The notes: generated from the sequence alone by a model not told the origin. Positions 29,191 through 51,273 are shown, counted from the first letter of the stretch. The stretch: 51,277 nt of DNA from Promethearchaeota archaeon (GCA_048940445.1 JBHLON010000025.1:1-51277); one strand, 5' to 3'. Made by a program: numbers and translations.

Positions 29191-29205
29191 TTTTTCCTTT
29201 AAATA
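29191..29205 (+). promoter_or_regulatory. TATA box with pyrimidine-rich upstream element (TTTTTCC-TTTAAATA)
   Basis: Lies in a divergent intergenic region, 56 nt before ATG 29262. Confidence 0.4.
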
Positions 29206-29261
29206 TCCTTATCCTAAATCTTCTCTATATACTCTAATACAATAAAATAAGGTTAAGAAAT

Positions 29262-30338
29262 ATGCAAGAATTTGAAATTGTAAGGAATTTATCAGTACGA
29301 ATTGTAGATCATCCCGAAGAAATCCTAAAATATATCCATATAGGAATAAGTATTCCAGTATTACCCCAATTTCATAAATATATTGTTAGTGATATTAAAG
29401 AATACAACGCAAAATCTATATTACTCGAAGAGGAAATTGATACTCAAATATTCGGAAAACTAACTGATAATATAATAGGCCATACCCTTGTCTATGATGA
29501 TGGAGGAGAAGTACTTTTCTTTGGATTTTTTAATGTATATGACCATGATCCAAAAAAAATTGAGTACTTAGTGGATCAGGTCATTAACTATGCTAAAGAG
29601 AATGATTTTAGCATAATTCGAGGCCCAATTAATGTACCGACTGTGATCTTTGGATGGGGTTTTATGGTTGAGGGAAGTCGAAAGGATTTATTTATTGGTT
29701 CACCTATTAATCCACCTATATATCAGCAAATATTCAGAGAAAAAGGGTTTATTGATAAGTTTCAAGAAGATAGATATTGGATGCCCGCTTTAAAGATGGA
29801 TCCCCATAACAATCCAGCACTAGTTAAGAAAGGAGTGGATTTTTCAGATTATGAATTCTCCAATCCAGGAAGAGAAGGACTAATGGCGATAAAAGATGAG
29901 TACATTGAGCTTCATGCGACTTACATGCCTCATTCAGCTCGTATTACTCCCAAAGCATCCAAAAATTTCGATAACATAGTTGATTTTACCCATTCGTTTG
30001 GTGCGGACTGGATGATGTGGATTGTAAGACACAAAGAAACGGGACAGATGTCTGGGTGTGGTTATATTATACCCGACGTGTTTCATTTGAATCGGAAAGG
30101 ACAGTTGGATTCAGTTAGCTTCCATGATTGGGTAGTACATCCCGATCATCGTAGAAAGTATCTGTCAATGTTAATGTACGGAGAAACCTCTTTACTAGCC
30201 AAAGATCATAAAACTCCTCACTACATTAATCGGGGTTCTTGGCCTGTAGGAGCAGATAATCTTGCCAATGCAAATGCAGCTATGAAAATGGGAGGAAAAA
30301 AAGATAGAAGCCATATTATCTTAGAAAAAACACTATAA
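29262..30338 (+). CDS. Tandem GNAT-fold protein of the YghO / bacterial ceramide synthase-like family
   Basis: FFGFF, RGPIN, GFxVEG, NPPxY...GFxxxxxD and VHPDHRRK acyl-CoA-binding-like motif. Confidence 0.65.
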   Translation: MQEFEIVRNLSVRIVDHPEEILKYIHIGISIPVLPQFHKYIVSDIKEYNAKSILLEEEIDTQIFGKLTDNIIGHTLVYDDGGEVLFFGFFNVYDHDPKKIEYLVDQVINYAKENDFSIIRGPINVPTVIFGWGFMVEGSRKDLFIGSPINPPIYQQIFREKGFIDKFQEDRYWMPALKMDPHNNPALVKKGVDFSDYEFSNPGREGLMAIKDEYIELHATYMPHSARITPKASKNFDNIVDFTHSFGADWMMWIVRHKETGQMSGCGYIIPDVFHLNRKGQLDSVSFHDWVVHPDHRRKYLSMLMYGETSLLAKDHKTPHYINRGSWPVGADNLANANAAMKMGGKKDRSHIILEKTL

Positions 30339-30357
30339 AAAAATTTTTTTTCGTGGT

Positions 30358-30732
30358 TTATTTCTTTCTTATTTTTTTTTCCATAAGTTTAGTATAAATA
30401 GAATTTATTTTAGTATCGACTTGAGTTAAAAGAGAGCTTTTTTTTTCTAAATCCTCTTGTAATTTCCTTACTTCCTTAATATCTGTTTTAGGATGTAGAA
30501 ATTCGACAAGAAAGGGGAGGTACTCTAATAGTTCTTCCACTACTAGCTCGCATTGTTGATAAATTTCTCTACGGAGCACTATCTCATTTACTTTCTTTTC
30601 CATCACATCTCTGATTAGAGCTTTCATTCTGAGCAACCAATCGGCATCAACCACTATTCTCTTAATATCTTCTCGTATCTCTTGGATAGTCTTTTTTTCT
30701 AATGTCATTGATTTATTCATACTTGAATTCAT
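30358..30732 (-). CDS. Small helical / coiled-coil hypothetical protein, last gene of the membrane operon
   Basis: 124-aa ORF starting 3 nt after the stop of the 1238-aa gene. Confidence 0.65.
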   Translation of the reverse strand: MNSSMNKSMTLEKKTIQEIREDIKRIVVDADWLLRMKALIRDVMEKKVNEIVLRREIYQQCELVVEELLEYLPFLVEFLHPKTDIKEVRKLQEDLEKKSSLLTQVDTKINSIYTKLMEKKIRKK

Positions 30733-30735
30733 ATG

Positions 30736-50120: not shown

Positions 50121-50163
50121 AAATTTCCATTTATTATTAAGAAAAAGAAGATGGGGAGTGGGC

Positions 50164-50179
50164 TTTTTAAATCTTTCGG
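50164..50179 (-). promoter_or_regulatory. Canonical BRE-TATA (CCGAAAGA-TTTAAAAA) of the TFB paralog gene
   Basis: Purine-rich BRE plus TATA box, 43 nt before GTG 50120. Confidence 0.55.
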
Positions 50180-50450
50180 TTTGGATCGAAATTTCTAGGT
50201 AGAACCATTTTCCTCACAAGATAGACTTTTACACTTTTGTGAAAATGAGTGATTTTTGCATTATGAAGTGCACCCCTCCATGATCTGAATTGAGGAAATC
50301 AATTGTAAGATACTATTGTTCTTAAGAGAAGGTAAGTTTAAATTCATCAAAGGTCAGAAAAATGAGATTTTTTGATATGGGTATAATCTGAAGATTTTAA
50401 TTTTTATCGATTATTTTGACAAAAAAGTAACATAGCGATTATTTTTGATT

Positions 50451-50465
50451 TTTTTCCTTTATATA
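50451..50465 (+). promoter_or_regulatory. TTTTTCC-TTTATATA promoter of the membrane peptidase gene
   Basis: TATA 50458-50465 lies 22 nt before ATG 50488. Confidence 0.55.
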
Positions 50466-50487
50466 GGCTTAAAAAATTAATAACCTG

Positions 50488-51273
50488 ATGACATTACTTG
50501 ATATGTTTTTTTGGTTTATACTGATCTGGATCATTTCTTTAATATGTGGGGAAGCCTATAGGAGGAGTACTAGGTTTGTTCGAGGGCTTTTAAATATATT
50601 CAGTTTTATAGGAGTATTTATCCATGAGATAGGGCATGCCCTTATGTGTTTCTTATTTAGAGTCCCTATAGTTAGTTTTTCAGTGCGTCTTCACTATAGA
50701 AGTGAGATTTCTCCCCATGGGCATGTTAGATTAAAAGATTCTAGCAGAATATCTTTCTTACAAGGGATAATGATCACATTAGGTCCTCTGTTTCTTTCTA
50801 CATGGGTATTTTTATTATGTCTTGATTTAATATGGGTACAAGGAGTGGATGCAATTGCAGAGCTTACTTTAGTCGGTATTATGGTTTCAGTTGCTATTGG
50901 AGCAAGTCCTTCGCGCCCCGATTTAAATATGTTAATTAAAAGTTATCGAAATGATCCTTCGAATTCCATTTATCAACTTGTATTACTATTTCTATCATTT
51001 ATCATTGTTAATTTCCTAATTAATTTTTCCGTAATTTTAGATTTACCTATGGAACTACTATCCTATATTATAGCCTTTTTTACTATTCTAATCGTATACT
51101 ACATGCTTAGATACTCGATTAAAGCGATCGGCTACCTCATGACAAAAATATTTCATCTCTCTATTGTACATATGAAGGGTCTAACTAGGAAACGCCATCG
51201 CCCTAGTAGACGAAGAGCCTATAAATATGAATACCATTATGAAAAAGAATTGAAAGAGGTTACGAGAGAATGA
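50488..51273 (+). CDS. M50-like intramembrane zinc metallopeptidase
   Basis: HExxH inside a TM segment (FIHEIGH), GPLF, and PSxxD third ligand (SPSRPD); about 6 TM helices; basic tail. Confidence 0.75.
   Translation: MTLLDMFFWFILIWIISLICGEAYRRSTRFVRGLLNIFSFIGVFIHEIGHALMCFLFRVPIVSFSVRLHYRSEISPHGHVRLKDSSRISFLQGIMITLGPLFLSTWVFLLCLDLIWVQGVDAIAELTLVGIMVSVAIGASPSRPDLNMLIKSYRNDPSNSIYQLVLLFLSFIIVNFLINFSVILDLPMELLSYIIAFFTILIVYYMLRYSIKAIGYLMTKIFHLSIVHMKGLTRKRHRPSRRRAYKYEYHYEKELKEVTRE

Follow-up and report, generated by a model that had tools for sequence, protein, structure and literature searches.

The locus described here raises the question of why a divergent TFB, a membrane operon and repair helicases lie side by side in a Promethearchaeota genome. 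The window is the whole of contig C42 (51,277 nucleotides), which is part of a 3.64-Mb genome with protein matches to Promethearchaeota/Lokiarchaeia records. There is about an even chance that the answer is an inducible programme for exchanging DNA between cells and recombining it homologously, encoded by a vertically inherited, dispensable island. All genes that an earlier note on this DNA had listed were recovered in place by an ORF and Pfam check. The block at 29191-51273 represents about half of an island of ~55-60 kb: the contig ends 4 nt past the protease gene, within the start of the next ORF, and the island is thus cut at this point. Its missing parts were located on two further contigs by a genome scan with the promoter matrix described below. 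The block contains the following features:

29262..30338, plus strand: 358-aa accessory gene with the promoter motif, at the left edge of the island; its paralog, on contig C47, has no motif
37957-30358, minus strand: five-gene membrane operon (649, 240, 277, 1238 and 124 aa), confirmed
36008..37957, minus strand: 649-aa operon leader with an HhH pair, a degenerate PD-(D/E)XK nuclease-like domain and a TM hairpin
35284..36006, minus strand: 240-aa multi-pass membrane protein, syntenic in relatives
34454..35287, minus strand: 277-aa helical protein with a C-terminal TM hairpin, syntenic
30736..34452, minus strand: 1238-aa VirB4-like pseudo-ATPase with a VirB4/HerA core in which the Walker A lysine and the Walker B DE are missing
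30358..30732, minus strand: 124-aa helical protein, the last operon gene, 3' of the VirB4-like gene in most relatives
38043..40562, plus strand: Hel308-type helicase with an inserted SWIM-like CxC...CxH finger (Pfam DEAD, Helicase_C, Helicase_dom4_arc)
40627..41312, plus strand: two small conserved genes of 104 aa (40627-40941) and 80 aa (41070-41312), with the motif at each
41851..43077, plus strand: GNAT-like 408-aa gene with the motif, accessory and variable in position; its C47 paralog lacks the motif
43110..46308, minus strand: Hef operon with a 193-aa gene, a Hef/FANCM-like helicase of 704 aa and a Zn-ribbon 184-aa gene (Pfam)
46365..48689, minus strand: alpha/alpha-toroid surface protein with an N-terminal signal and a C-terminal TM segment (Prenyltrans toroid, E 1e-17)
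48858..50120, minus strand: the divergent TFB paralog, TFB*, with a Zn ribbon, a shortened B-reader, two cyclin repeats, an altered BRE-reading helix and a C-terminal extension
50153..50178, minus strand: TFB* promoter with a purine-rich BRE, a TATA box (50164-50171) and a downstream element (50153-50162), conserved in about 25 orthologs
50488..51273, plus strand: M50-like intramembrane metalloprotease with an intact HExxH

Codon use in the genes between 29262 and 51273 is atypical, mostly in the lowest decile, and their GC3 is ~0.28 against 0.215 genome-wide. Island GC3 also exceeded that of the flanks in 15 of 17 regions of other genomes. To the left of the island (25501-28032), an ordinary secreted protein of the penicillin-amidase family, without the motif, is encoded beside a carbamate-kinase-like gene.

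Upstream of orthologs in other genomes the consensus WTTTTTYCTTTAWATA was found, a T-run followed by a TATA box. Archaeal BREs are normally purine-rich, and the T-run takes that place in the island promoter. A promoter matrix was trained on four gene families, exclusively from other genomes, and the 3,177 ORFs of the genome were scanned with it. Scores of at least 12 were obtained for 9 of 16 block ORFs, compared to 23 of the 3,177 ORFs genome-wide (hypergeometric p about 1e-16). Of the 68 genome-wide sites scoring at least 14, the island DNA (34 kb) contains 13, against an expectation of 0.64, and the genes in the leftmost 29 kb of the window all scored 8.3 or less. Five genes on contigs C30 and C124 were among the top eleven of the scan; these are island genes in better assemblies, which provides a blind validation of the matrix. 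The gene for a 74-aa hairpin protein, whose family was outside the training set, scored at least 10.6 in 29 of 29 loci, and its motif lies 21-25 nt upstream in nearly all of them. Spacing between motif and start codon is usually 21-27 nt, and 41-56 nt for some genes. The matrix placed nine T-rich BRE-TATA sites in the block:

29189-29205, plus strand: T-rich BRE-TATA site
37957-37973, minus strand: T-rich BRE-TATA site
38000-38016, plus strand: T-rich BRE-TATA site
40584-40600, plus strand: T-rich BRE-TATA site
41012-41028, plus strand: T-rich BRE-TATA site
41788-41804, plus strand: T-rich BRE-TATA site
46331-46347, minus strand: T-rich BRE-TATA site
48746-48762, minus strand: T-rich BRE-TATA site
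50449-50465, plus strand: T-rich BRE-TATA site

The non-canonical promoter proposed in the earlier note as common to most of these units is real and not due to chance, but it does not extend to the TFB gene itself, which lacks the motif, as do the internal operon genes. It is likewise missing from the GNAT, 358-aa and Hef paralogs that the genome encodes at other places. Orthologs of the toroid surface protein carry it upstream. Two GNAT-like genes bear the motif, yet enter and leave the island among relatives. Counts of the strict pattern separated the genomes weakly, with 4-36 matches in island-bearing and 4-9 in island-less ones. Three of the four genome matches to the MK-D1 variant of the motif lie in the island, a figure that is circular, as the variant was derived from those sites.

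TFB* comprises 420 aa and has the Zn ribbon and the two cyclin repeats that define a TFB/TFIIB protein, as well as an HTH; its family profile matches TFIIB/TFB structures (E 7.5e-6). The B-reader is ~18 residues shorter than in the eight ordinary TFBs of the genome. The BRE-reading helix, which we take to be the one contacting the BRE, reads MSTIQxQV in TFB* versus TE(V/A/I)T(I/L)RxR in the ordinary eight. Co-location and co-loss suggest that TFB* reads the T-rich motif, and judging by sequence it very probably drives about 15 T-rich promoters, akin to an alternative sigma factor. If this is true, TFB* and its dedicated BRE would provide an unusually clean example of an archaeal general factor selecting promoters in the manner of a sigma factor. 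A matrix built for the TFB* promoter returned a score of 35.6 for TFB* itself and 18.8 for the next gene in the genome. The conserved AAACTCC-like downstream element in this promoter is a candidate operator, which suggests a two-tier design in which some regulator would control TFB* and TFB* would control the island. As the element upstream of TFB* is unique in the genome and has no counterpart at housekeeping repair genes, a link of the island to DNA damage found no support. Coverage was flat over the contigs of the one MK-D1 RNA run (DRR199588), which makes that run uninformative on expression.

The membrane operon starts with a 649-aa protein in which HHH_5 was identified by Pfam (E 1.6e-9). 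Its model (pLDDT 82) matches Cdn1 (Z 9.1, rmsd 2.9, 115 aligned) and has NERD and DUF4143 among its structural neighbours; in the nuclease-like fold the second catalytic acidic position is occupied by Pro. Its DNA-binding domains lack a signal peptide and probably reside in the cytoplasm. The protein is a probable membrane DNA tether. The 1238-aa protein consists of two repeats of a TM hairpin plus an alpha/beta domain, the VirB4/HerA core and C-terminal helical domains. TrwK/VirB4 was the best Foldseek match of its model (pLDDT 80.8, E 2e-15), and VIA gave Z 25.9 for 7o42 (602 aligned, rmsd 14.7) and Z 24.6 for 4ag5 (331 aligned, rmsd 3.9). The motif GxxxxGK[ST] is absent from ~60 aligned homologs and from the top ~118 profile matches, and Walker A/B are degenerate in every aligned homolog, across families and classes, which argues that the protein is a conserved scaffold rather than a motor. 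The VirB4/HerA-fold protein and the DNA-binding folds that had been anticipated are therefore present in the predicted structures, the former over its full length, but without Walker A/B it cannot be a CedB-type motor. All intact HerA-family genes of the genome are located outside the island. No Pfam or PDB match was obtained for the 240-aa protein and no convincing one for the 277-aa protein, and PDB sequence searches with the 1238-, 240-, 277-, 74-, 338- and 578-aa families returned nothing useful. Claudin-like (240-aa) and HEPN-like (277-aa) identities were considered and dropped, as Pfam support was absent. Both genes went undetected in the MK-D1 island.

The gene order is shared by ~25 Lokiarchaeia genomes, and the clustering survives rearrangement. 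The usual order in relatives is the membrane operon, a Zn gene and Hel308, the Hef operon, the toroid protein, TFB*, an operon in which the M50-like gene is followed by a 114-aa TM gene and a RadB-like ATPase, a RadA paralog, a 338-aa surface protein, 74-aa and 121-aa TM genes, FEN1, RPA, and a roadblock and a GTPase gene. The RadA, RadB-like and 114-aa island genes were not found in the assembly of the window's genome and probably fall in an assembly gap. Within the family (n=126 genomes) the 1238-aa gene occurs in 98 genomes and TFB* in 91, with both on the same contig in about 40. Five genomes, namely G024, G029 and G031 (95-99% complete) and the single-contig G094 and G054, are devoid of TFB*, the VirB4-like gene and the RadA of island type all at once, and the island Hel308 is missing too from the three family genomes of this set and from G094. 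In some genomes, the island was lost as a unit, all or none. It is present in the cultured MK-D1 (CP042905.2, about 1.73-1.78 Mb). Synteny and co-distribution, the lack of which would have spoken against the earlier proposal, were thus found. At the edges, the island promoter has also been gained by radical SAM, amidotransferase-like and GNAT-like genes that are lineage-specific (L064:3892-7113, L036:6525-9014). One bin, G147, holds three near-complete island copies, two of them nearly identical, which may reflect duplication or contamination (9%).

A patchy and sometimes multi-copy island with atypical codon use and higher GC3, whose satellite copies lie near ParB-like genes, could be an integrated conjugative element that still moves or is in decay. 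This is very improbable. No integrase or relaxase was found among the conserved island families and no tRNA at the edges of 41 island loci, ORFs are mostly intact at ~33% identity, and the tree of the 1238-aa protein agrees with genus labels (g1 0.998, g2 1.0, save one second-copy paralog). The earlier view that this is not an ICE is upheld by the same data, and the tree, judged against genus labels, gave no indication of horizontal spread across lineages, although transfer within a genus may occur.

Judged by sequence, catalytic motifs are intact in the island's RadA, RadB-like protein, Hel308, Hef helicase, GTPase and protease. The SF2 motifs and archaeal domain 4 identify the Hel308-type helicase as such, and the motifs are kept in 22 orthologs. 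It may be the sole Hel308 of the genome; one other match (C62, 31%) could be ASH-Ski2. Many Lokiarchaeia genomes were reported to lack Hel308, which was attributed to incomplete assemblies (PMC10946056). Loss of the whole island may explain part of this absence. The island Hef has no ERCC4 Pfam match, the ERK nuclease motif is absent in 17 of 20 orthologs, and the protein does not qualify as a Hef with an active XPF/ERCC4 nuclease. A second, distinct RadA clade is described for Asgard genomes (PMC12722695). The island, too, encodes a distinct RadA paralog that is ~40% identical to housekeeping RadA and may belong to that clade. Housekeeping RadA and Hef exist separately, the latter as two further genes, and neither carries the motif.

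So many recombination and repair enzymes might also serve a cell-internal, stress-induced regulon for repair and fork restart, in which the membrane proteins just tether DNA and none moves between cells. The probably cytoplasmic HhH domains and the dead ATPase would suit this reading, which we nevertheless consider unlikely: it leaves the surface proteins, pilin-like hairpin, protease and GTPase pair unexplained, near-complete genomes have lost the whole island, and housekeeping RadA and Hef have neither the motif nor the TFB* element.

Outside the window, the island supplies a pilin candidate. While no pilin is visible in the window itself, as had been stated before, the 74-aa hairpin protein encoded elsewhere in the island modifies this picture. 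Its main-set members match the genome's own copy at 51-77%, and the structural neighbours of its model include PF18895 (TM 0.74 and 0.70). Sequence matches to solved pilins are absent, and the likeness of the model to T4SS pilins, by shape alone, is best taken as a lead. In G010, which belongs to another order, a pilin-like hairpin gene lies immediately upstream of a split VirB4-like pair (L093:10185-10535), and tandem 87- and 79-aa hairpins recall CedA1/CedA2 (L094:6048-6560).

The earlier note had compared the locus to the TFB3-controlled Ced/Ted DNA import systems of Sulfolobales and Thermoproteales (PMC6101594, PMC11823120). Both share a chromosomal VirB4-like protein (the 1238-aa protein qualifies as a VirB4/HerA-fold membrane protein), a TFB paralog as the (in the island, probable) controlling factor and the lack of a relaxase. 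The 74-aa hairpin, which has no signal peptide, is a candidate counterpart of the small pilin-like proteins with two TM segments in those systems (VirB2-like CedA1/TedC). The analogy holds for the dedicated TFB, its promoter and the VirB4 fold, but membership fails on the type of TFB and on the ATPase. TFB3 is truncated and lacks the C-terminal HTH (PMC6101594), whereas TFB* is full-length, its HTH is altered and it has a promoter class to itself. The literature describes both CedB and CedD as ATPases (PMC6101594, PMC11823120), while the island VirB4 has no intact Walker A/B; an intact-Walker ATPase as a possible counterpart to the second, VirD4-like CedD/TedD occurs in satellite modules and was not found in the window's genome. 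A CedA/VirB6-like channel was likewise not found in the island, where no protein matched a VirB6/CedA-like channel of 6-7 TM segments by sequence. The island in turn holds recombination enzymes in the same locus.

The fold match to TrwK of R388 (VirB3-VirB4 core of a T4SS) covers model residues 67-902, including the N-terminal domain. The island protein differs in its doubled TM plus N-terminal module, dead ATPase and extra C-terminal domains, and the island is missing recognisable VirB6/8/10/11, relaxase and integrase. In bacterial competence, ComX/SigX turns on genes for a membrane DNA receptor, helicase, SSB and recombinase. One alternative initiation factor would control such a gene set in the island as well; in contrast to competence, no ComEC or type IV pilus genes were seen in it, it uses the archaeal TBP-TFB machinery, and its HhH protein, unlike ComEA, is probably cytoplasmic. 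No papers describing the island, its promoter or the pseudo-ATPase were found, most subscription journals being outside the search.

A single switch thus seems to govern surface and pilin-like proteins, a scaffold of VirB4 type, a DNA tether at the membrane and a second, dispensable set of recombination enzymes, and the best explanation for this combination is inducible DNA exchange with homologous recombination. In such a programme, some regulator at the unique TFB* promoter element would release TFB* from its canonical promoter, and TFB*, with its rewritten BRE helix, would recruit polymerase to the T-rich BRE-TATA promoters. The toroid protein (a candidate adhesin), beta-repeat surface proteins, 74-aa hairpin, roadblock-GTPase pair and M50 protease may then build a localised cell contact, scaffolded by the ATPase-dead VirB4. 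As the main island has no pump, DNA might pass the contact or be pulled by the helicases, and the HhH protein would then capture it on the membrane. Going by homology, the RadA paralog, RadB-like protein, RPA, Hel308, Hef and FEN1 would recombine the incoming DNA into the chromosome. The missing Walker A/B, the off-island position of the intact HerA-family genes, the lack of a match to a VirB6/CedA-like channel, the model-based pilin call and the absence of the 240- and 277-aa genes from the matches in the MK-D1 island count against exchange.

Multi-copy satellite modules under the island promoter, present in many genomes but not in the window's own, combine a TFB* paralog, M50, an intact-Walker ATPase of 650-720 aa and a giant protein; some also hold a VirB4-like paralog or hairpin genes. 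The giants are acidic mosaics of 700-1900 aa with variable LAGLIDADG, TFIIB repeat and HTH domains. These modules were found at loci L168-L187, L060 and L099 in G120, G001, G030, G097, G068, G053, G057, G048, G015, G040, G118, G115 and G141. With them, the machine is seen to exist in an energised form as well, and a rival stays alive in which protein is delivered: polymorphic nuclease or DNA-binding effectors would be passed on contact, and the recombination set would salvage DNA of the target cell. The pairing of TFB*, M50 and pilin-like genes with the active ATPase and giant argues for such delivery, as does the cargo-like N-terminus of the two best off-island motif matches in the own genome. 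Even so it is quite unlikely, as the active ATPase has no match in the window's genome or in the genus of MK-D1, no known toxin or immunity families were found, and the giants could be selfish riders on a DNA-exchange programme. Two orphan genes of the own genome with the island promoter (L074:4157-6448 on C94, 763 aa; L075:4788-6608 on C47, 606 aa) share an N-terminal signature with a satellite gene, one with a weak LAGLIDADG-like match, and are possible selfish riders as well. Motif-bearing Cdc48-like sequences were also observed, as a gene in the own genome (L081:3453-5711) and, next to the VirB4 paralogs of satellites in G040 and G001, as fragments (L062:18279-18794).

Outside Lokiarchaeia, homologs of the 1238-aa protein were found in 19 of ~110 Asgard genomes from nine families, either as split genes or with a single N-terminal repeat. 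At 10 of 12 inspected loci of other Asgard classes the VirB4-like gene adjoins Hel308, RadA, RadB-like, FEN1 or Hef, and several such loci also contain the roadblock-GTPase pair; Ca. Freyarchaeum deiterrae is among the named examples of this VirB4/recombination core. A 146-aa ORF near the Freyarchaeum locus was considered as a truncated TFB and rejected, being an Lrp-type regulator by sequence. Sightings of TFB* were confined to two families of Lokiarchaeia, and the switch therefore looks younger than the core. This distribution also bears on a developmental programme (dormancy, formation of cysts, or fusion of cells with no directed transfer), in which the envelope would be remodelled and the chromosome protected. 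The sigma-like cascade, the intramembrane protease, a GTPase pair of the polarity type and the use of the island promoter by accessory GNAT, radical SAM and amidotransferase-like genes are in line with this idea, yet the accessory enzymes differ by lineage and the pan-Asgard core consists of VirB4 and recombination genes, which makes it decidedly improbable. More speculatively, and doubtful at present, the island could be an ancestral Asgard sex-like programme predating the class split, with a dedicated recombinase set, a motorless VirB4 as contact or fusion scaffold, a polarity GTPase and, in Lokiarchaeia, a TFB switch that works as a true alternative sigma factor.

Asgard DNA exchange and recombination bear on the origin of eukaryotic sex, and the island supplies a defined gene set, promoter and master factor for this question, which becomes testable since the island is intact in the cultured MK-D1. 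A further motif-bearing gene of the own genome, RPA2-like, lies on C139 (L073:4997-6815) divergent from a 226-aa gene, a homolog of which is part of the island both in MK-D1 and in three further genomes.
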